Below, one piece after another: positions 2,456-14,420 of a DNA stretch of 64,000 bases. Source of the stretch: a virus; IMG/VR virus record IMGVR_UViG_3300006329_000001, positions 1 through 64,000 of that record. One strand, written 5' to 3'. Made by a program: the position numbers and the translations under genes. The notes under the pieces are model-generated. The model had not been told where the DNA came from, ran no database searches, and saw nothing but the letters and a program-made list of their open reading frames with translations. The stretch's first letter is position 1; the number at the start of each line of letters is the position of its first letter.

Positions 2456-3825
2456 TATACTTTAAATCCCTCGAATTGTTTCTTAGTATCTGTTGTTGGT
2501 TCGATATCACCTGCGTCAATGATATCATCTTGTGCACTTTGCTCACAATCATACAGCCTCATCTTCGCTCTGTCAATACCCACAACGAATCTCTTATACA
2601 TTGTAGGATCATTATAGCGATTCTTCAACTGCTTGACCATTATTTGTCCGAGTTGTTCCATATCTTCTGTACTAATGAGAGCAAGCATAAGGTCAGCAGT
2701 GGCGGGAAGACCGAATGACTCAGAGGTATCAGTAAGATCGACATCACTGTTAGCAAACCCACTACGAGTTGTTTGGGTTGCGGATACGATTGGAACATTA
2801 AACTCCACTGCCAATCCCCTGAGTTCTTCTGCAATCGCTTTGACATAAGTGTAACTATTAACTATAGTCCCTTTATATCTAGCAGAAGCACATATATTTA
2901 AGTAGTCTATGAATATAATATCAGGACTAAATCCTTTCTTCATGGACAACTCATTTAAGAGTGCCTTGAAGTGACCCACATGTGCTGATGCTGTGGGATA
3001 CTCCTTAATGATTAGTTTACCTTGAGTCTTCTTCTTTAATTGAAGCAACTTGGAGGAGTATTTTTCTTTTGTGAGGAGTGGGTCGTTGAGTGATTGGATT
3101 GGGATGTCCAAGAGGTTGGCATCAACTCGCTCTGCAATTTTCTCCTCTGCCATCTCCATTGTAATGTAGAGAACGTTCCTCCCTTGGAGCAACACGGAGC
3201 TAGCAACATGGCACATGAATAAAGACTTCCCGACACCTGTACCAGCAAGTGCGATGTTAAGAGTCTTATTAGGTAAACCACCTTTGGTAATTTTGTTAAG
3301 ATACTCAAGATCAAATGGTATCTTCTCTTCCTTCTTGTGATAGAAGTCATATCTTTCGTCAGAGTCCTGTATGTAATCGTGTCCTACATGATCATCAAAA
3401 CACACACCAAGGGCTTCAGACATGATAGATGGTATCGCATCTTTGGTACGTGTCTTGTCTTGTCCGTCAGCTATTTTGACAGACTCCATTAGAGCAAGAT
3501 AAATTGCTCTTTCTTTACACCACTTCTCAGTGGTTTCGACAAGCCAGTCCTCGTTATACGCTTCCCTATCTAAATTATTAAGAAACTGCTCGACCTCCTG
3601 ATATATTTCCTCGGAGATGTCCCGACGTTTCTCTACTTCTATCTTTAGGGCATTTGGTTCGGGGGTAGCCTCAAATTTATTTACATAATCTGATAAGGCA
3701 TTAAACAATACCTTATGAGTATGAGTATCAAAGTACTCATCCTTTATAAATGGTAAGACCTTCCTAGTATATGTCTCATTAAATATGAGATTACTTAAGG
3801 TGATCTCTTCTATCTTTAAACTCAT
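2455..3825 (-). CDS. gp41: replicative DNA helicase
   Basis: Walker A AGTGVGKS, IFIDYLNIC, SATQTTR, SESFGLPATAD, QLKNRY. Confidence 0.97.
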   Translation of the reverse strand: MSLKIEEITLSNLIFNETYTRKVLPFIKDEYFDTHTHKVLFNALSDYVNKFEATPEPNALKIEVEKRRDISEEIYQEVEQFLNNLDREAYNEDWLVETTEKWCKERAIYLALMESVKIADGQDKTRTKDAIPSIMSEALGVCFDDHVGHDYIQDSDERYDFYHKKEEKIPFDLEYLNKITKGGLPNKTLNIALAGTGVGKSLFMCHVASSVLLQGRNVLYITMEMAEEKIAERVDANLLDIPIQSLNDPLLTKEKYSSKLLQLKKKTQGKLIIKEYPTASAHVGHFKALLNELSMKKGFSPDIIFIDYLNICASARYKGTIVNSYTYVKAIAEELRGLAVEFNVPIVSATQTTRSGFANSDVDLTDTSESFGLPATADLMLALISTEDMEQLGQIMVKQLKNRYNDPTMYKRFVVGIDRAKMRLYDCEQSAQDDIIDAGDIEPTTDTKKQFEGFKV

Positions 3826-5385: not shown

Positions 5386-7871
5386 GACCAAAGTGCCTCT
5401 AATGTATTCATTTTCTCTGCCTTCCACCCTATGCAATCAAGTATAGCCTGTAAGGGTGCAAGAAAACTCTTCTCAAATTGTAGGTCATAATCAATAGAAT
5501 TGTCAAGCCCAAATTCTGATGGAAGAGTCTGGAAGAATGAGATTATATTCTCATTAATCTTATTTGGGGTGCGAAGATGTAAGTATTTAATCTTCTCACC
5601 CTCTTGTATGATGGGATACTTGTGCTGTAGTTTCTTCTTCTTGATGTGATAATTATACATCAATGCACCACGCACATGCATCGGACACCCCTTACCATAT
5701 ATGGTAGCAGTGGATGTATTCTTTGCAATATTATTACAACCACGAGGGAATGCTACCTCTTCTGGTGACATCTTCTCAAACTTATCACGGAAGTCCTTGA
5801 TATATTTCTGAGTATCAGTCTCACTACCTGTCATTATAACATTAAGTGCTTCCTTAATAGCATTACGACATGGCATAGGTGTAGATGACTTCACTGCTTC
5901 GATACCCATCATCTTTAGTTTAGGTTTCTCATACTGGACACCCTCACTATTCCATACGTTTAAAATATATCTCTTCTTCGCTGTCCATATACCTTTGTTG
6001 GCAATGTTTTCTCTCTTCATTACCATCTTCTGCTCATAAGCATTTACAACGGTTGCCATTTCTTCATAAGCACCCTCAATATAGCGATCAAGTTCCACAT
6101 CACACACCTTTTTAAGGAACCTAAGTGTACTCTGATCGTCCTTCTCTCCACTGGGGAATACAGCTTGTACCAGAGGACCAAGATTAAGGTAAATACTATC
6201 AGTGTCACTAGCAATAACATAATCAGTCTCCTCTGTTTTTAATACTTTGTTTAAATAATTGTTTACTTTGTTTTCAATCCATCGGATTGCTACTTGTCCA
6301 GACAATGTGATCGCTTCAGCGTTCGCAAGATTGTAATATCTGAAGTATTGGTTACCGATAGCACCATAGGCAGAGTTAAGTTGTATCTTTCTTGCCATCT
6401 GGATGTTGTTGAACTTGGCGATGTCTCGCTTGAGTTGTGCTGTTGGTTTCTTTTCATACTCACTCTTTGCCTTAAGCATTTTCTTCTTATAGATTGTCCT
6501 CTCATCGTAGATGCGTTGCATCATCTCAGGTAAGAATCCGTGGATGTCCTTGCGGTATTGGGCTCCGTTGGCACACACTGCAAAGTCTTCATCGATCCGA
6601 ACGTCTCCACTGAGCATTCTCTCAACGGTGGCGGTAGGGTGTCTTCGCTCGACGAGGGTTTCGGGGGAGATGTTGTACTGCATGATAAGGTGAGGGTATA
6701 GACTGTTAAGGTCAAAACTGACCACCCAATCATAGATGCCAGGCTTCGGCTCTTTGACGTATGCTCCTGCGTATTTGTCATCTTTTCTAGTTGAACTCCT
6801 TGGTGGTACTACAATATTTCTTTTACTAAGGTCATTATATATGAGAGTGTCCCATACTTTAACCTGAGAATACACATCCTCAAAGTTAACCTTGGCATCG
6901 TATGCCATAGCAACACACAACTCCACCAGTTTCATCTTGTCTTCCAGTTGGTCAACAAGTTCAACGTCATGGATGTTATACTCTACAAACCTATCCCAAT
7001 CATTAGTATAGAAGTCTTTAAAGTTTTCATACTGAGAGTGATCTAACTTCTTATCATCTAACTCAACCATTGCAATGTGGTCTAGTCTATATGACTCTTG
7101 GTTTGTATAAGTAAACTTCTTATAGAGGTCAAGGTAGTCAAGAATACTAACACCAGTAAGATCATAAGCAATGTTCCTACGTCCTTGAATGACAATCTCC
7201 CTGTCATGTACCCTTTTCCAAGGAGACAGAGATTTCTTCCACTTCTCACCTAGTATCCTCTCTACTCTACGACAGATATAAGGGATATCATATAAGTTAC
7301 AGTTCCATCCTGTAATAATGTCAGGGGTATTCTTTGCCCACCACTCAACAAAGTCTGCAAGCATCTTATCTTCCGACCAGAATACTCTATACTCATGCTG
7401 AGATTGAAACTCTCGTGTACCCCACGTGATTATCTTCTTAGTATTGAAATCCTTTATAGTAATGCATAGCATCTGCTCTGCACATGCTTCTACATCAGGG
7501 AATCCATTCTCACATGCAACCTCAATGTCAATCGTATAGATTTTCATCTTGGTCATATCATAATCTATGTCACTAGGATATTTCTCAGCGATATGCTGAT
7601 ACAAATACCTCTCATAACCATGGACTTCCATACCCGCAGCATCTTCATACTGCCTAAGAAACTCTCTTGCTTCTCTAGCACCATCAAACTTCTTTGGGTA
7701 TGCTTTCCTACCATCTAAAGTCTTATACTTAGATGGTTTCTTTTGTGCATCTGGTACCAGATACAATGTTGGTTGTGACTTCTCTCTGTATTGTACAGGT
7801 TGTCCATTCTCATACCCACGGTAGAGAATATCATTTCCTAATAGACATAAATTTGTATAGAAATCACTCAT
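5382..7871 (-). CDS. gp43: family B DNA polymerase
   Basis: Exo [35 protein letters not shown]; no intein-sized insert. Confidence 0.98.
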
Positions 7872-9137: not shown

Positions 9138-9565
9138 GTTAGGTAGTCCTTACGAGCATGATGCTCAGGTACTATCTTACCTAACTTGATAACGAGGAGT
9201 CCGTTGTCGAAGGCAACGTCTGTGACGTGGGTGTCTTCTGCGATTGTCCACGACCTCTTGAAAGTTCGCTTAGCCAATCCCCTGTGGATAAACGTCTCTT
9301 CCTCATCTGGTTCAGATTTGGTTCCTTCGATATGAAGTTTTCCATACTCTGTGAAGACATTGACTTCCTCCTTTGTGAAACCTGCTAGTGCTACTTCTAA
9401 TCTAGACTCGTGATTGTTTATGTGAACAATATTAAAGGGTGGATAGTTCGAAGTTTCCATAGCGTTGAAACTCTCGAAGTAATCATCCAGCCCTAGCGAG
9501 TTAGTAAAAATCTTATCCATCAACTGATTCAAATCAGCTGCACGGTATCTCTGTATCTTAGACAT
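9134..9565 (-). CDS. hsp20: small heat-shock protein
   Basis: NYPPFNI, LEVALAGF, HRGLAKRTFKRSWT, FDNGLLVI, VPEHH; strong SD AAAGGAGG. Confidence 0.95.
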   Translation of the reverse strand: MSKIQRYRAADLNQLMDKIFTNSLGLDDYFESFNAMETSNYPPFNIVHINNHESRLEVALAGFTKEEVNVFTEYGKLHIEGTKSEPDEEETFIHRGLAKRTFKRSWTIAEDTHVTDVAFDNGLLVIKLGKIVPEHHARKDYLT

Positions 9566-9598: not shown

Positions 9599-9628
9599 GT
9601 GTCCCCGAAGGCGACACTATTATTTATA
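9599..9628 (-). promoter_or_regulatory. T4-type late promoter and leader hairpin of hsp20
   Basis: TATAAATA at 9621-9628 followed by GTGTC-GCCTTCGGG-GACAC stem-loop. Confidence 0.75.
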
Positions 9629-9692
9629 ACACATACTCGGCCATTGTCAGTAGGGGTATCCGAAATAGTACATTTGTTACAATACTTTATTT

Positions 9693-9712
9693 GCTAAATA
9701 GAAGTACTTCTA
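9693..9712 (+). promoter_or_regulatory. late-type promoter of the plus-strand operon with overlapping 14-bp palindrome
   Basis: GCTAAATA at 9693-9700; TAGAAGTACTTCTA at 9699-9712; AGGA SD before the ATG at 9723. Confidence 0.55.
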
Positions 9713-9722
9713 CTTAGGATAA

Positions 9723-10232
9723 ATGAAAAGAGCGTTATTGCTTTTTGGTATGATTTTGATGAGTGGCACAGCAGCACGTGCCGATCTGACTCATAGACTT
9801 AGTAGCTCGACACAACTCCAAGTGGATGCGGGTTATACTTCAGTTTCTAGAGCAGCAAATACATATAGTACCAGTGGATCTGGTGTCAGCACAACTATTA
9901 CACCGTCAGGTGGTAGTGCAGCTAGTAATCTAGGCGGTATATCTGCTGTCAGCACAGCAGGTGTAGCAACTTTTGCACTTCCTGACGTGGCACAGACGAC
10001 CCAAGGAAATGCATACAGCTTTACACAATCAATAAGCACAGGTGACGCTATCGTTACTACTGCTGCTGATGTAGGTGATGTAAATGGTTATAGTAATACA
10101 GTATCGACTGCCCCTGGTACCGCTGGTTCCTTGGCTGGTACCATTAGTTCCGCTGGAGCGATGGCACTAACAGCTGGAGGTTCAGGTACATCGGCTACGG
10201 GACAGTTTGTCACAGAAGTGACCATACGATAA
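9723..10232 (+). CDS. exported Ser/Thr/Gly-rich beta protein (Sec signal peptide)
   Basis: MKRALLLFGMILMSGTAARA signal; C-terminal alternating strand GQFVTEVTIR. Confidence 0.85.
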   Translation: MKRALLLFGMILMSGTAARADLTHRLSSSTQLQVDAGYTSVSRAANTYSTSGSGVSTTITPSGGSAASNLGGISAVSTAGVATFALPDVAQTTQGNAYSFTQSISTGDAIVTTAADVGDVNGYSNTVSTAPGTAGSLAGTISSAGAMALTAGGSGTSATGQFVTEVTIR

Positions 10233-10244
10233 GGATGCTACATA

Positions 10245-10712
10245 ATGAAACGAGTTTTAGTACTACTACTGCTTAGTTTCGGGGGTGCTGCTGCAAACGC
10301 AGTGCCCGTGGTACCAAATTTTCAGCAGGGATCTATGACATCCCACACGGAGACTGAAAGTACGGTCACGGAGACCATAAATTCGATTGACATGAGGACA
10401 GGATGGGAATACACAGTGAGTGGGGTAGGCGTTTCAAACGATGGAGCAGCACTAAACCCCAACGTGAATACATCAACGGTGACAGTCTCACCAACAGTAG
10501 GGTCGGGAGAAGGAGCATTAACAGGCACCGTAACCTCTCAATACGACAACTTAGACTTCAACACTCAGGGGACGTTCACAATAACGACTCCAGGGGATGC
10601 CTTCCAATTCGTACAGAGTTACCAAGGACCAGGGATGACCAACCAGACTTTAATACAAAGAGTAACCACCATCCGAAGCGTAACAGACACAACAAGTACG
10701 TTTACCCAGTAA
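10245..10712 (+). CDS. exported Thr-rich beta protein (Sec signal peptide)
   Basis: MKRVLVLLLLSFGGAAANA signal; long alternating Thr/Ser strands at both ends; SD AAGGA. Confidence 0.85.
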   Translation: MKRVLVLLLLSFGGAAANAVPVVPNFQQGSMTSHTETESTVTETINSIDMRTGWEYTVSGVGVSNDGAALNPNVNTSTVTVSPTVGSGEGALTGTVTSQYDNLDFNTQGTFTITTPGDAFQFVQSYQGPGMTNQTLIQRVTTIRSVTDTTSTFTQ

Positions 10713-11617
10713 TTGCAGCACTTCTCGGCATCCAAATCTTACCTGCAAGAGCAGAAGTTGGTGGAGTTAGTGCTACTGCAAACCCGATAGCGAATAGTTC
10801 GGGCTCAGTAACCAACCAGGCAATACAAGTTTTACAAGGTCCATACATAACCAACACCTATGGTGGTGGTGTCCAGTGTCAGGGTGCTACGTTTAACCTA
10901 ACACCCTATGTGCAATTTGCCGATTCAAGAAAAGATCCTTGGATCGATTTTTATGATGAACCACAATATAATATGACTGATACCAGTGGTAAGATGACTC
11001 CTACTACAGTGACAGTTAAAAACTATCCTTGGGAGACATGGTATGACACCAGAACCAAGTCAGATGGTAGTAGATGGTTTGAAGATGGTGCTGACATGCA
11101 GATCACAATGGATCTAGATGGTCCTGATGGTGTGCCTGACGTAGTAAGCAATCAAACAATGACTCCTACTTGGTTTAAACCAGTGAGGACTGACATGTCT
11201 GCTAACCAGTCATTCAATGCTGGTCTCTCTGCAACACTATCAATCCCTCTTAATAGAAAGTTGATGAAGCAATGCCATGAGGCAGCTGCTGCTCAGATTA
11301 ATATGCAAAACCAGTTAGTATCTAATAAGAGACTGGACTTTGAGTTAGCTCGTCTTAAAAATTGTGGTGAATTAAAAAAAGCTGGTATATTTTTCCACCC
11401 AGCTAGTCCTTATCATTCTGTTTGTGCTGATGTAGTAGTAACAGCACCAGGTGGTACTTTAGTACCTCACGAGCATCAGTTACCTAAACCTAATTGGATT
11501 AACCCTTCTACTTCTTCTTCTTCAACGTCTTCTTCAGTGGAAGTAACCCCTTCTTCAAACGGTACTGGTCTGCCAACACTTCAGATCGGGACGGTCTCCG
11601 AGTCTGACGACCCATAA
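10403..11617 (+). CDS. exported, possibly outer-membrane protein; start uncertain
   Basis: Signal-like segment KRNRHNKYVYPVIAALLGIQILPARA; NAGLSATLSIPL followed by a helical region; four Cys in the mature part; the first ~100 codons overlap the preceding gene. Confidence 0.8.
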   Translation: MGIHSEWGRRFKRWSSTKPQREYINGDSLTNSRVGRRSINRHRNLSIRQLRLQHSGDVHNNDSRGCLPIRTELPRTRDDQPDFNTKSNHHPKRNRHNKYVYPVIAALLGIQILPARAEVGGVSATANPIANSSGSVTNQAIQVLQGPYITNTYGGGVQCQGATFNLTPYVQFADSRKDPWIDFYDEPQYNMTDTSGKMTPTTVTVKNYPWETWYDTRTKSDGSRWFEDGADMQITMDLDGPDGVPDVVSNQTMTPTWFKPVRTDMSANQSFNAGLSATLSIPLNRKLMKQCHEAAAAQINMQNQLVSNKRLDFELARLKNCGELKKAGIFFHPASPYHSVCADVVVTAPGGTLVPHEHQLPKPNWINPSTSSSSTSSSVEVTPSSNGTGLPTLQIGTVSESDDP

Positions 11618-12389
11618 TAGAGTTAACCTTAGTCATAACCTTCTTAACCACTGGTTTGATCACCTTCAATAGGAGATCTGCCAGTGGTTTTGCAAATAAA
11701 GCAGAGGTAGTTGCAACTGTTGCTATGACTGCTGTAGTTGTTACCACTCCTGCTGTTGGTAGAAACTGTTCCACTGCTGGTACAGGCTCCCAGATAGTCT
11801 CACAGATTTTACCGTCAGGTGTTAGTTTATATTCTTTTACTTGCTCATCACCCTTCTGATTCCTATCACCTATACGTCTAGCATTAGGTGGAGGACATTC
11901 TATTTCTTTGTCAGTAGGGATGTTTGTATCAGGAGTTGGTGTATCTGGTGCATCAACATTAGGCTCTTCTAAATTCAAACCTTCATCACCCTCCTCTTGG
12001 TCAGGTGTTACTGTCTGCCATGTCAATTCTCTAGCATCATAGTCTGGTGGCTCATAGTATGGCATACCTGCATCACATAATACTACGTTACCTTTAGGGT
12101 CATCGTTAACTAGATTCTTATTACTAGATGGATCTCTCTTAGCATTCTCTTTGTGTACCTTGACACAACCAGGCATGTCAACGACAGGTGTACCTACAAC
12201 TGTCACCACTGGTGGTGCTAGAGGTGTAGTAACATGAGTTTGTGCTTCCCAAGGACGTATCTCACTAACAAACACACCACGGACAGGGTATATACCAGTG
12301 CCTTGTGAACGTATTAAAGGTATCCCAGTAGCATTTACATAGATGTTTGGGATACCTGTGTTGTTTATATTAATATGAGGGATAGTCAT
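11508..12389 (-). CDS. Cys/Pro-rich protein with C-terminal membrane anchor
   Basis: Cys pairs, acidic Pro linker, hydrophobic VVTTTAVIATVATTSALFA then basic tail; start moved to the ATGA-coupled MTIPH. Confidence 0.8.
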   Translation of the reverse strand: MTIPHININNTGIPNIYVNATGIPLIRSQGTGIYPVRGVFVSEIRPWEAQTHVTTPLAPPVVTVVGTPVVDMPGCVKVHKENAKRDPSSNKNLVNDDPKGNVVLCDAGMPYYEPPDYDARELTWQTVTPDQEEGDEGLNLEEPNVDAPDTPTPDTNIPTDKEIECPPPNARRIGDRNQKGDEQVKEYKLTPDGKICETIWEPVPAVEQFLPTAGVVTTTAVIATVATTSALFAKPLADLLLKVIKPVVKKVMTKVNSIMGRQTRRPSRSEVLADQYRLKKGLLPLKKTLKKKK

Positions 12390-12547
12390 CGCCACAACCT
12401 AGTTAATTGTCTAACATCAGTGACACCATAGAGTGCCTTTACTGTTGCTTCTGCATCCTCTCTAAGATTAGATGGACAGAAGAATTCTACTTTGGTTAAT
12501 CTATTTGAGTTGAGTAATATTTGTGCTGACCATTTAGTTTCGATCAC
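12386..12547 (-). CDS. small hypothetical protein (53 aa, not in ORF track)
   Basis: GTG start; MIETKWSAQILLNSNRLTKVEFFCPSNLREDAEATVKALYGVTDVRQLTRLWR; 4-nt overlaps at both ends. Confidence 0.7.
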   Translation of the reverse strand: MIETKWSAQILLNSNRLTKVEFFCPSNLREDAEATVKALYGVTDVRQLTRLWR

Positions 12548-12804: not shown

Positions 12805-13055
12805 TTTGGTAGTTGCTCCTTGTAATCCTTCGGGTTCGGCAACGTCTTAACTGGGCCACTAGTAGTCGGCCATGCGTTGACTAGCTGATGATATAATTCT
12901 TCTCTGATTATCTCCCTCAGTCTAACCTCCTCAGCATTAGCTCTCTTCTCAGGTCCACCTTTAAAGTTATCAACTATGGTACCACCACCTATAGTAGCAC
13001 CAGTACCTATGACTGCTGCTGCTGTGACTCCTGTTGTTACTTTCTGAAGGTCCAT
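12801..13055 (-). CDS. small protein with N-terminal Gly-rich hydrophobic helix
   Basis: VTTGVTAAAVIGTGATIGGGTIV. Confidence 0.7.
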   Translation of the reverse strand: MDLQKVTTGVTAAAVIGTGATIGGGTIVDNFKGGPEKRANAEEVRLREIIREELYHQLVNAWPTTSGPVKTLPNPKDYKEQLPK

Positions 13056-13726
13056 TAGAGATACGTTACTACTAATATTACACGTCTTCCTTTCTTAGGA
13101 GGCACCATACAATGTAGTCCATCAAAGACTACTATATCATCCTCTTTAGGTGTGAAGACATGCTTCTTACCATGCTCATCGAATGCAATTGTGTCTCCAC
13201 CTACATCAGTGAAGTATACAAGTAGATTCTTATGAGGGAATTCATGATCATAATGCGGTACTGTTAATACATTACCGTCAACTGGATGCACCGCATTAGC
13301 ATTAATACGGTAGACAACCTGTGGGTTAATTTTATTTATCTCAAAGATTTGTCCAATAACAGGCTCGACATACTCCAGATATTCAGAGTTAGGGTTGGAA
13401 TAAAACTTGTGCATAGGACTTGGTCCTTGCAAAAACCCATGAGAATAGAACGCTAAGTCCCCATTCGACTGCTGTCTCATCTGATAGCCAGCGTGGTTGG
13501 TCTGCTCTTTGATTAATTGATCGGCAGCACTAAGTGCCTCTTGTCTATCTCCTTCGTCTAAGTCTTCTTTATTACTTTCTACGGATCGATTGACATACTC
13601 TGTGTAACCAGGTGTTGCCTGATCATTGTAGGACCAACCGAAGTTTGGTCCTAAAATAAGTTCTTTAAATGATGAATATTCACGTGTATACTTAGTCTCC
13701 ATAGGAGACTTCAACTTAGTAAACAT
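13055..13726 (-). CDS. 2OG-Fe(II) oxygenase-like protein
   Basis: PHYDH (HxD), GGDT, FDGLH, RRVILVVTY. Confidence 0.75.
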   Translation of the reverse strand: MFTKLKSPMETKYTREYSSFKELILGPNFGWSYNDQATPGYTEYVNRSVESNKEDLDEGDRQEALSAADQLIKEQTNHAGYQMRQQSNGDLAFYSHGFLQGPSPMHKFYSNPNSEYLEYVEPVIGQIFEINKINPQVVYRINANAVHPVDGNVLTVPHYDHEFPHKNLLVYFTDVGGDTIAFDEHGKKHVFTPKEDDIVVFDGLHCMVPPKKGRRVILVVTYL

Positions 13727-14009: not shown

Positions 14010-14420
14010 CTATAATTTATAGGTTTTATCATCAGTCTTACCAGGATCCACAGCAATGATCTTCAATGGTGCTTGCTCTATTCTTAGAGTTTGCACAGGA
14101 CCAGGTGAACCAGCACCAACTCCTCCACCATTCTGCATCTTCATGGTACCATCCCCCTTCTTAGAAGCGGTTTGAATGCCAAAGCTAGCTAAAACTCCTG
14201 TAAAAACCGAAGCTATGAAAGTTGGATCAATTTTCTGTTGTTCTAAACCTGGTACAGTAACATAGTTTAACGTCAAGATCCCTCCCGACCAAACTAGTAC
14301 ACCAAGTCTCACAAAAGTAGAGAAGATTGCAGCTGCATCCTCCTCATCTGGTAATACTTTGTCCTTTATTGTACCAATAATACCTTTCTTTGTCAAGTCT
14401 TCTTCTTTTTCCTTAGCCAT
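14010..14420 (-). CDS. two-TM membrane protein of a cyanobacterial/cyanophage family
   Basis: VRLGVLVWSGGILTLNY and IDPTFIASVFTGVLASFGI. Confidence 0.8.
   Translation of the reverse strand: MAKEKEEDLTKKGIIGTIKDKVLPDEEDAAAIFSTFVRLGVLVWSGGILTLNYVTVPGLEQQKIDPTFIASVFTGVLASFGIQTASKKGDGTMKMQNGGGVGAGSPGPVQTLRIEQAPLKIIAVDPGKTDDKTYKL

Follow-up and report, generated by a model that had tools for sequence, protein, structure and literature searches.

A Predicted Exported Hairpin-and-Helix Protein of Marine Cyanophages and Its Possible Place in a Late Envelope Module

Introduction

What is the role of the third protein encoded by a small phage operon of exported proteins, and is it, as a first-pass annotation had proposed, a TolC-like protomer of an outer-membrane channel? 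The question is raised by gene 3 of an operon located in the window, that is, the whole stretch of 64,000 nucleotides analysed here (positions 1 to 64,000 of IMG/VR record IMGVR_UViG_3300006329_000001). The gene has been met before under another name. A five-gene cassette of hypothetical proteins (T4-GCs 218, 219, 234, 235, and 237), possibly mobile, was reported in 15 of 16 cyanomyoviruses, S-PM2 being without it (Sullivan et al. 2010, PMC3037559). T4-GC235 of this cassette is the same gene as gene 3, and the report gives it no function, fold, export signal, or overlap. No functional study of the gene 3 family was found in the literature. What is new here is the wider range of the cassette, which is followed into T7-like cyanophages and a third phage lineage, and the description of the protein's architecture.

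The Operon and the Start of Gene 3

Gene 3 is preceded on the plus strand by two genes for small exported proteins. Gene 1 (9723..10232; phrog_564, T4-GC237) encodes a Thr/Ser/Gly-rich protein, and gene 2 (10245..10712; phrog_650, T4-GC236) a protein with a DUF6322 (PF19847) domain. Both products are Cys-free and contain few charged residues. A T4-type late-promoter-like motif, CTAAATA, lies at 9694..9700, 22 nt upstream of the gene 1 ATG. It is the sole plus-strand copy among nine in the window, the other eight being on the minus strand, which is the main coding strand. Of 59 related loci, 39 have [AC]TAAATA at 29-37 nt before the gene 1 start codon, and in most of the remaining ones the variant CTATATA stands there. 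Late expression of the operon is suggested by this promoter motif, whereas the scan for sigma-70 promoters and terminators was uninformative.

The full coding sequence of gene 3 (10403..11617, plus strand, as are all the gene 3 features given below) specifies 404 aa and belongs to the phrog_848/phrog_1755, T4-GC235, “gp165”, P-SSP7 gp45 family. Its true start is the ATG at 10403, which lies within gene 2 in the −1 frame. The context of this ATG, ACAGGATGG, is invariant in 29 distinct sequence contexts, and GAGGA is present at 10394-10398. The last 310 nt of gene 2 thus double as coding sequence for the gene 3 leader, of which the Arg/His/Asn/Lys-rich N-terminal extension (10403..10696) is overprinted on gene 2. 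In 67 unique loci, with 103-133 overlapping codons each, the gene 3 frame over gene 2 contains no stop codon, against 4.7 per locus expected when gene 2 is shuffled synonymously (per-locus median P of 0.003 for the absence of stops). That in 67 loci this frame has stayed free of stops for over 100 codons, as far back as an ATG in an invariant context, favours independent initiation of gene 3 and disfavours both a −1 ribosomal frameshift and a restart at a non-AUG codon where gene 2 stops. In a subset of the phages, a GTG also overlaps the stop codon of gene 2. Genes 2 and 3 are translationally interlocked in every lineage, and the 100-codon leader in the −1 frame of the upstream gene represents an unusually well supported case of overprinting.

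The Export Signal

The extension is followed by an export signal (10697..10753) made of a hydrophobic core (YVYPVIAALLGIQILPARA) and an ARA↓E site, at which cleavage is predicted. The layout KRNRHNK-YVYPVIAALLGIQILP-ARA↓E, with a positive n-region, a hydrophobic core, and an AxA site, is that of a Sec signal; the basic extension of about 100 residues that precedes it in this phage is unusual. An AxA↓[EQ] site equivalent to ARA↓E is kept in all loci. Distant relatives from the third lineage possess an ordinary ATG start and canonical M-K-R/K...AQA signal peptides (MKR/MKK), and these M-K-K...AxA signals bear out the earlier view that the protein is exported. A Tat signal was rejected, as the twin arginine is missing in most members and the mature part has conserved Cys. 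The four conserved Cys also fit with an oxidising compartment, in favour of export. By its sequence, the gene 3 product is a Sec-exported protein, and the mature form would begin at the Glu encoded at 10754, directly after the ARA site.

Architecture of the Mature Protein

The mature protein begins with an uncharged stretch, residues 2-56 (10757..10921), in which 55 residues pass without Asp, Glu, Lys, or Arg. Across the family this run measures 55 to 87 residues. Residues 2-56 are the most conserved sequence of the family and yet are disordered in the AlphaFold2 monomer model, with a pLDDT of 42-53 for residues 1-30. That an uncharged N-terminal segment of 55 residues is unstructured in the monomer suggests folding only within an assembly.

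The first of two amphipathic strands lies near the end of this stretch. Strand β1 has the sequence GATFNLTPYVQF at mature residues 44-55 (10883-10918), and its amphipathic part is ATFNLTPYVQ at residues 45-54 (10886..10915). It offers only about five lipid-facing positions, plus a conserved Pro. A distal polar ribbon with a hypervariable hairpin-tip insert occupies residues 55-151 (10916..11206), a region that includes a small β subdomain with strands at residues 82-89 and 114-121. Between the two main strands lie anywhere from 9 to 106 residues in family members (97 here), a spread that an exposed loop would be expected to show. Strand β2, NQSFNAGLSATLSIPL at residues 151-166 (11204-11251), ends in a Pro-Leu-Asn/Asp junction, and strand and junction together cover residues 152-167 (11207..11254). 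In this segment G157, P165, and L166 are each at least 90% conserved.

The two faces of the hairpin differ markedly in a 65-sequence alignment. Mean hydropathy is +2.4 versus −1.2 for the faces of strand 152-166 and +1.5 versus −0.7 for those of strand 45-54. Charged residues (Asp, Glu, Lys, and Arg) account for only 2-3% on either hairpin face versus 21-34% in the distal ribbon of the same sequences, and the small-polar face of the hairpin is strongly conserved. The persistence of this hydropathy contrast and low charge throughout the alignment makes a chance pattern unlikely.

The junction leads into a single amphipathic helix of 42 residues, residues 168-209 (11255..11380), which contains MKQCHEAAAAQINMQNQLVSNKRLDFELARL and is modelled with a pLDDT of 93-97. 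The helix is charged, and its hydrophobic positions follow a heptad-like spacing. The mature protein has exactly four Cys, namely C42 (10877), C174 (11273) and C204 (11363) in the helix, and C224 (11423). Among 65-70 relatives C204 is invariant and the other three are each at least 90% conserved. The disulfides predicted from them would join C42 to C174 and C204 to C224. C224 belongs to a conserved GIxFHPxSPYxxxCADVVV loop (11381..11440), after which a poorly conserved Ser/Thr/Pro-rich tail with a pLDDT of about 50 extends to the stop codon (11441..11617). The last 110 nt of the tail overlap the 3′ end of an opposite-strand gene (11508-12395), and the same convergent overlap occurs in P-SSM2 and P-SSM7.

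In AlphaFold2 models the long paired strands and the 42-residue helix are predicted with high local confidence, whereas pTM is only 0.39 and 0.33. This combination indicates a fold that is not globular but consists of an extended β-ribbon and a single long helix. The elements that the first-pass annotation had read from the sequence at 10750-11450, i.e., a strand, a long variable loop, a second strand ending in IPL, a long helix, and four Cys, are all confirmed. The compact soluble monomer fold that would have spoken against its membrane reading did not appear.

Comparison with TolC and Other Known Folds

The same annotation had taken the pattern G-x-S-x-x-x-S-x-P-L for a signature of TolC-family outer-membrane factors. 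The likeness is real in a local sense. In both cases an amphipathic strand passes through a Ser-x-Pro-hydrophobic junction into a long helix, the protein is exported to the envelope, and, if the gene 3 hairpin were membrane-embedded, a barrel would lie in the outer membrane with helices in the periplasm. The stretch GLSATLSIPL(D/N)(G/R)(G/K), with the long helix next, resembles the TolC strand-to-helix junction (GLSFSLPIYQGG). However, the resemblance does not extend beyond this junction, and kinship failed in every search for it. Pfam OEP (PF02321) gave no match at E up to 1 to either the 301-aa or the 404-aa form of gene 3, the two forms searched against Pfam. A six-frame OEP search of the whole 162.7-kb phage record returned nothing, versus matches in 7 of 14 control genomes. 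The 65-sequence family alignment compared with E. coli K-12 TolC by hhalign reached a probability of 0.5% (E 0.13), with 25 helix columns aligned. The model shows a single hairpin and a single helix of 42 residues. Neither Foldseek nor VIA-align lists TolC among its matches, although for a monomer model of low pTM such an absence is not proof.

The overall plans also diverge. About 230 residues of the gene 3 protein make up one hairpin and one helix, whereas TolC has about 430 residues with four strands and long helical hairpins in an internal repeat. The gene 3 protein further differs in its four Cys, its large variable tip insert, and its restriction to phages. A diverged TolC/OEP factor is effectively refuted, and membership of that family is given a negligible chance. 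What survives of the TolC-like reading is an analogy of architecture, namely a non-globular hairpin plus helix with charge-free faces and a variable tip, whereas homology does not.

Other known families gave no better counterpart. The family assignment itself is firm: gene 3 gives a full-length profile match and shares synteny with the DUF6322 partner (phrog_848/T4-GC235/P-SSP7 gp45). Its matches among PHROGs, phrog_848 (E 3.5e-98) and phrog_1755 (E 1.8e-69), are all to families of unknown function. In Pfam only a chance 20-residue match to a synphilin motif was found, the profile search of PDB sequences produced one chance row (E 1.1), and the ESM Atlas returned only the viral clusters of gene 3 itself and no named cluster. 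Foldseek against the PDB, with the full mature model and with the β part alone, gave a best E of 0.16. Its weak rows include aerolysin/parasporin, cytochrome f, and phage collar/tube proteins, with TM-scores of 0.05-0.21 that are taken as noise. VIA-align recovered only generic long helices and coiled coils for the full model (Z about 5), and the β part had no match with a Z of 2 or more. The PDB includes structures of TolC, CsgG, and secretins, but none of them was among the profile, Foldseek, or VIA-align matches. Similarity to CsgG, FapF, secretins, or ushers was likewise found in none of the Pfam, PDB-profile, Foldseek, and VIA-align searches. In the comparison with solved oligomeric channels (CsgG, secretins, and Wza), Pfam had no match, and the best row of any kind was E 1.1 in the PDB profile search and E 0.16 in Foldseek. 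The gene 3 family is phage-specific and in these searches matches no solved structure or curated family of assigned function. No host homologue appeared in one pattern scan of 185,579 species genomes, a scan whose pattern drew a blank among viruses too.

An analogy in design may also be drawn with the stems of β-pore-forming toxins (α-haemolysin and aerolysin) and with the DUF680/Phage_OMP half-barrel. These also have one short amphipathic hairpin per protomer with a Ser/Thr/Asn/Gly polar face, and as with them the gene 3 monomer is predicted not to be globular and would need assembly to close a barrel. For cyanophage DUF680/Phage_OMP proteins, the predicted outer-membrane barrel arises when two incomplete ones pair up (bioRxiv 10.64898/2026.10.24.761521). 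Aerolysin-family chains occur among the weak Foldseek rows at E 1.5-3, which is not significant. Unlike these systems, to which there is no significant fold or sequence match, the gene 3 protein would insert from the periplasmic side and bears a long helix and a putative disulfide loop.

Distribution and Gene Neighbourhoods

Relatives of gene 3 number at least 7,330 in a protein set clustered at 90%, and 426-455 phage records carry a match to the family. It is accompanied by a recurrent module, composed of a DUF6450 two-TM protein, a phrog_570 protein, the DUF6322 protein, and the gene 3 protein, which corresponds to P-SSP7 gp42-45. In the window the phrog_570 member is the convergent partner gene (11508..12395, minus strand; T4-GC234), whose Cys/Pro-rich product has a membrane anchor at its C terminus as well as a basic tail. 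The DUF6450 (PF20048) member of the same module is a small two-TM protein (14010..14420, minus strand; T4-GC218). The phrog_570 gene is co-inherited with gene 3 in T7-like phages and in a lineage of 43-kb phages (52 of 56 loci), and the DUF6450 gene directly adjoins the module in the former and is present in all 56 loci of the latter.

In the T7-like cyanophages NATL1A-7, P-GSP1, and P-SSP7, the module has the tail fibre gene on one side and the gene for the small terminase subunit on the other. In T7, the holin and spanin genes occupy that same position. These cyanophages retain one small partner, the gene 2 homologue, and two inner-membrane proteins. Such a set at the T7 lysis-gene position argues for a late envelope or lysis role and not for fibre secretion. 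In the third lineage, phages of about 40-43 kb of which four records were checked (92-100% complete by CheckV), the module has a flanking gene in 56 of 56 loci for a membrane-anchored C39-like peptidase, and this peptidase gives a match to phrog_10051, an endolysin family of PHROGs (E 9e-54). Since the 56 loci belong to one lineage, they count as essentially one observation. The C39-like endolysin is absent from the window's own genome record, which is 87% complete. Gene 3 is also a neighbour of tail-fibre genes in podoviruses and the 43-kb phages. A holin or spanin is annotated in none of the cyanophage records examined. As for the virion, the “YES” that marks proteins detected by experiment in virions is missing for T4-GC234, 235, and 237 (Sullivan et al. 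2010, file S1), and the gene 3 family is not flagged in the virion proteomes of S-SM1, Syn9, or S-PM2.

The position of the module invites comparison with spanins. The gene 3 protein is predicted to share with Rz/Rz1 late timing, envelope targeting, Cys residues, and a periplasmic coiled-coil-like helix. Like Rz/Rz1, gene 3 overlaps the gene of its partner in another reading frame. In T7-like cyanophages it occupies the place of the T7 lysis genes, and in the third lineage an endolysin-like gene lies beside it. Unlike spanins, the gene 3 product has a β-hairpin. There is no Cys at +1 of the cleavage site, where an o- or u-spanin would have its lipobox Cys, and in all lineages a short core is followed by AxA. 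The protein is not an o-spanin because it lacks a lipobox, and it is not an i-spanin because its signal is of the cleavable kind and not a stable N-terminal anchor. Spanin PHROG and Pfam families and the lysis-category PHROGs gave no match to gene 3.

Possible Modes of Action

The gene 3 product could plausibly be located in the host outer membrane. The reading preferred here, held tentatively and judged short of an even chance, is that of an oligomerising outer-membrane hairpin protein that acts late, probably in outer-membrane breaching. It proceeds from the export signal, the start and overlap, the late motif, the architecture, the conservation, and the neighbourhoods, which are read from sequence and prediction, to signal cleavage, disulfides, an oligomer, membrane insertion, and a lysis role, which we infer. 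The mature layout would comprise the uncharged 55 residues, a charge-free hairpin, the Pro-Leu-Asn/Asp junction, the 42-residue helix, and a Cys-stapled loop. The protein would oligomerise through the helix and the conserved uncharged segment. Entering from the periplasm, the hairpins would bury themselves in the outer membrane of the host and make up a small β-barrel or ring of several subunits, with the variable insert turned outward and the helix left in the periplasm. Together with the DUF6450 two-TM, phrog_570 anchored, and DUF6322 proteins it may cooperate, late in infection, in a step at the envelope, for which the outer-membrane stage of lysis is the most plausible candidate.

Some observations count against this reading. 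In a soluble assembly the amphipathic hairpin could just as well lie against the helix or a partner protein. Strand β1 would present few positions to lipid and includes a conserved Pro. Nor does the protein possess a C-terminal aromatic β-signal, a lipobox, or a pilotin-like partner that would account for entry into the outer membrane. The argument for a lysis role of the module is one of gene neighbourhood, the window's own genome record lacks the C39-like endolysin, and S-PM2, which is cassette-free, still lyses its host.

The first of these points leads to a distinct possibility, regarded as rather unlikely, in which the protein is a soluble oligomer on the periplasmic or peptidoglycan side, its hairpin packed against the helix, or else against the gene 2 protein or phrog_570 as a partner, and not spanning the membrane. 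It would act through host envelope components, by receptor masking, superinfection exclusion, guarding of progeny from debris, or loosening of the tether between outer membrane and wall. The evidence of export, late timing, and module is the same for this oligomer, a charged amphipathic helix with heptad-like spacing is typical of soluble coiled coils, and the lack of a β-signal or lipobox is in keeping with it. A precedent may be lambda Lom, which blocks the phage receptor LamB according to a recent study cited in bioRxiv 10.64898/2026.10.24.761521. Such an oligomer is at odds, however, with hairpin faces that are both charge-free in 65 relatives and with the conserved small-polar face, which are unusual for a solvent-exposed sheet, and with the uncharged N-terminal run of 55 to 87 residues and the non-globular monomer model.

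It is improbable that the protein forms an outer-membrane secretion channel or base that exports the gene 1 and gene 2 proteins into a curli- or Fap-like surface fibre. Three exported proteins in one late operon, the interlocking of genes 2 and 3 in every lineage, the Cys-free and charge-poor nature of the small proteins, and the hairpin-plus-helix architecture would suit such a channel, which was also the function first proposed for this locus as an outer-membrane base for the two smaller proteins. The proposal found no support. T7-like cyanophages keep one small partner only, along with two inner-membrane proteins at the lysis-gene position. Moreover, the searches brought up nothing similar to CsgG, FapF, secretins, or ushers, the pore built from one-hairpin protomers with small polar residues in the lumen would be narrow, and the benefit of late fibre building to a lytic phage is not obvious. 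Still less credence is given to a virion or assembly component (e.g., tail or fibre associated) or to a thylakoid-lumen protein acting on the photosynthetic apparatus. Late expression and the adjoining tail-fibre genes in podoviruses and the 43-kb lineage would accord with the former. The weak top Foldseek rows include phage tail/collar proteins and cytochrome f, although at E 0.16-1.4 these are not significant and stand at chance level. In cyanobacteria, Sec signals serve the thylakoid lumen too, so that the signal itself would be compatible with the latter. Both ideas are countered by the predicted cleavable signal peptide together with the conserved Cys, and by the unflagged status of the family in the S-SM1, Syn9, and S-PM2 virion proteomes.

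In its most far-reaching form, which is unlikely as a whole, the preferred outer-membrane reading would make gene 3 the outer-membrane part of an unrecognised, lipoprotein-free breaching system with DUF6322, phrog_570, and DUF6450 holin-like partners, supplying the missing last step of lysis in marine T4- and T7-like cyanophages. The system would act by a small β-barrel pore formed from the periplasm or by a spanin-like bridging to an inner-membrane partner.

Biological Significance

The gene 3 family is among the commonest unexplained genes of ocean cyanophages, with more than 7,000 clusters at 90% identity and about 450 phage records. It is found in three unrelated phage architectures, always with the same set of small membrane and exported proteins. 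If the hairpin is membrane-embedded, the protein may represent a new building plan for the outer membrane, with one hairpin and one helix per subunit. The lysis of Prochlorococcus and Synechococcus by cyanophages drives much of the turnover of carbon and nutrients in the sea, and no report of how marine cyanophages lyse these hosts was found in the literature searched. The gene 3 module may be part of their lysis or envelope machinery. Given a module of late, exported proteins that sits where T7 has its lysis genes, and an endolysin-like neighbour in another lineage, this gap in the understanding of lysis becomes a testable set of four or five genes.

Genome Setting and Expression of Gene 3

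The source record, of which the window is a part, is that of a T4-like cyanomyovirus (162.7 kb, 87% complete by CheckV) whose closest isolates, about 70% identical at the DNA level, are P-SSM2, P-SSM5, and P-SSM7. The minus strand carries nearly all genes of the record, apart from a plus-strand operon of three genes, flanked by hsp20 and by a run of small membrane-protein genes, of which gene 3 (10403–11617) is the third. A T4-type late-promoter motif, CTAAATA, occurs at 9694–9700 (+), 22 nt upstream of gene 1 (9723–10232), and is the sole plus-strand copy in the window. Among 59 related loci, 39 have [AC]TAAATA 29–37 nt 5′ of the gene 1 ATG. On the minus strand, the T4 late-promoter consensus is represented by TATAAATA at 9620–9632, about 60 nt ahead of hsp20, which starts at 9565. 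As the consensus is present on both strands of this intergenic region, the two appear to be divergent late promoters for hsp20 and the exported-protein operon.

No ATG, GTG, or TTG lies near the signal-peptide-like segment of gene 3. The frame, which is −1 relative to gene 2 (10245–10712, DUF6322 protein), is open back as far as an ATG at 10403, inside gene 2, so that about 103 codons of the overlap (10403–10712) are read in the −1 frame. Over the 103–133 overlapping codons this frame contains no stop in any of 67 distinct related loci, whereas synonymous reshuffling of gene 2 gives an average expectation of 4.7 stops per locus (median P of no stop, 0.003 per locus). The start context ACAGGATGG is invariant across 29 distinct sequence contexts despite covering two four-fold degenerate gene 2 codons, and the same overlap arrangement is found in T7-like cyanophages. 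The open frame and the invariant start context thus indicate that gene 3 is made as a 404-residue precursor, whose first 100 or so residues, basic and overprinted on gene 2, are followed by a hydrophobic core and then by ARA, with E as the next residue. Third-lineage relatives have an ordinary ATG overlapping the gene 2 stop and textbook signal peptides (MKRVIATLLLLTAPAQA, then Q); therefore, the mature domain is predicted to be an exported protein, the long leader being peculiar to some lineages.

The start of gene 3 is annotated inconsistently: in P-SSM7 the far ATG is used and gene 2 is omitted, in P-SSM2 a GTG leaves no signal peptide, and in P-SSP7 the gp45 CDS begins downstream, which removes the signal peptide. 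In the NATL1A-7 record, the DUF6322 homologue is a 123-aa ORF (3381–3752) that has a signal peptide and is left unannotated; the “gp165” CDS, as annotated, encloses it entirely in a different frame.

At the opposite end, gene 3 and the convergent phrog_570 gene (11508–12395, minus strand) share 110 nt (11508–11617), and a convergent overlap is also present in P-SSM2 (about 215 nt), P-SSM7, and the 43-kb lineage. On the strand of gene 3 the shared stretch encodes a poorly conserved Ser/Thr/Pro tail and on that of the partner a conserved basic tail; given its poor conservation, the former may have been overprinted on the latter.

Sequence Features and Predicted Structure

All elements listed by the first-pass annotation were recovered in the frame 10403–11617. 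With the E that follows the ARA site (at 10754) counted as residue 1, GATFNLTPYVQF occupies residues 44–55 of the mature protein and NQSFNAGLSATLSIPL residues 151–166, and the helix containing MKQCHEAAAAQINMQNQLVSNKRLDFELARL spans residues 168–209 (AlphaFold2, pLDDT 93–97). There are exactly four Cys, of which C204 is invariant and C42, C174, and C224 are each at least 90% conserved. In a 65-sequence alignment, whose members are 28–91% identical to the window protein, the Kyte-Doolittle averages of the two faces are +2.4 vs −1.2 for strand 152–166 and +1.5 vs −0.7 for strand 45–54, and charged residues make up 2–3% of either strand face vs 21–34% of the neighboring ribbon. Ser, Thr, Asn, and Gly form a conserved ladder on the polar face of the hairpin (G157 in 64/65 sequences). 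Strand amphipathy is therefore a family property and not chance in one sequence. The inter-strand segment is 97 residues long in the window protein and 9–106 in the family as a whole, and hypervariability of this kind at the tip is what exposure on the cell surface would predict.

AlphaFold2 was run on the mature protein with the 65-sequence alignment (mean pLDDT 76.7, pTM 0.39) and on the beta part alone with 70 sequences (mean pLDDT 69.9, pTM 0.33). In both models residues 46–71 and 140–165 pair in a long ribbon, with a small beta subdomain in the tip insert. A single long helix directly follows the Pro-Leu-Asn junction; a short loop that contains Cys comes next, and then a Ser/Thr/Pro tail modeled at low confidence. 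Confidence that is high locally alongside a low pTM points to an extended, non-globular chain, and the compact soluble monomer that would have refuted the first-pass reading is absent. The first 30 mature residues, uncharged and part of a 55-residue uncharged run, are the best conserved of the family yet disordered in the monomer, and the model suggests that their ordering may require an assembly.

Comparison with TolC and Other Known Proteins

In the searches made, the gene 3 protein resembles nothing known. The Pfam search gave no real match and the sequence-profile search of the PDB none; Foldseek with the full mature model and the beta part reached a lowest E of 0.16; VIA-align paired the full model only with generic long helices and gave no match at Z ≥ 2 for the beta part; and the ESM Atlas contained only the protein's own viral clusters. 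The TolC/OEP-like signature noted at first reading is not borne out as membership. TolC homology is effectively excluded by the lack of an OEP HMM match to the protein, by an hhalign probability of 0.5% for the family alignment against E. coli TolC, and by predicted topology, one hairpin and one helix as opposed to the repeated strand pairs and helical hairpins of TolC. The OEP HMM also found no match in six frames of the whole phage record, while the same search returns matches in seven control genomes. The likeness is local, at the strand-helix junction, and what survives is an architectural analogy: a charge-free hairpin with apolar and small-polar faces, joined by a proline to a putatively periplasmic helix.

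Neighborhoods in Three Phage Types

T4-GCs 218, 219, 234, 235, and 237 have been described as a cassette of hypothetical proteins that may be mobile and that occurs in 15/16 cyanomyoviruses (Sullivan et al. 2010, PMC3037559). Gene 3 is T4-GC235, and none of these T4-GCs is flagged there as detected in virion proteomes. T4-GC219 (13055–13726, minus strand) matches phrog_274 (“DNA endonuclease V”) with E 6e-28, and its HxD...H pattern could fit a 2OG-Fe(II) oxygenase-like fold.

The partners of gene 3 recur in two further architectures, T7-like cyanopodoviruses and an uncultured lineage of roughly 40–43 kb. In the former (NATL1A-7, P-GSP1, and P-SSP7 gp42–gp45), the order is tail fiber, phrog_570-like anchored protein, two-TM DUF6450-like protein, DUF6322 protein, gene 3 protein, and small terminase subunit. 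In T7, the interval from tail fiber to small terminase houses the holin and spanin genes. In the uncultured lineage (four records checked, 92–100% complete by CheckV), one border of the full module is formed by a C39-like cysteine peptidase whose N-terminus carries a membrane segment (2632–3351, minus strand, in record L127; phrog_10051, a PHROG endolysin family, E 9e-54). This endolysin-like neighbor is present in 56/56 loci with sufficient flank, which, coming from one lineage, is essentially one observation. An 84-aa protein with a TM segment and then a coiled coil (3550–3804, minus strand) precedes the module, and the peptidase, this protein, and the two-TM DUF6450 protein look like a lysis cassette. 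The other flank has tail-fiber genes and, in 38/56 loci, a 120-aa Phage_OMP protein (PF24653, formerly DUF680) ending in LGLKYSF (6737–7099, minus strand). The predicted dimer of this family is a 12-stranded outer-membrane barrel (2026 preprint, bioRxiv 10.64898/2026.10.24.761521); the window's own genome record yielded no copy.

Interpretation

The gene 3 family and its cassette are already on record as hypothetical proteins. What is new is the architecture, matching no solved structure or curated family, the evidence on export and late timing, the conserved overprinted leader, and the tracing of the module, with its lysis-type neighborhood, into T7-like phages and a third lineage.

Composition, conservation, and neighborhood lead us to prefer, tentatively, a protein which oligomerizes with its hairpins in the outer membrane and acts in the outer-membrane stage of lysis. 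Against the outer-membrane part stand the shortness of strand β1 and the absence of a beta-signal and a lipobox from the protein, which leaves no known route into that membrane. A soluble assembly in the periplasm, serving in binding or exclusion, is rather unlikely by itself, and nearly as likely as the preferred reading. Against the lysis part, no recognizable C39-type endolysin is found in the window's genome record (87% complete), and S-PM2 has been reported without the cassette (Sullivan et al. 2010, PMC3037559). The channel or base for two smaller proteins of the first-pass annotation, that is, a secretion channel for fibers, is possible and quite improbable; it is less favored because podoviruses retain a single small partner and the module keeps company with lysis-type genes.

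Taken together, the data support an envelope protein that is late, exported, and putatively disulfide-bonded, that matches no solved structure, and that is inherited in three phage types along with a few membrane proteins. In the preferred reading of an outer-membrane oligomer, the hairpins would enter the outer membrane from the periplasm and lie buried there, with the helices kept in the periplasm and the insert facing outward, and the assembly would then participate in the outer-membrane stage of lysis.
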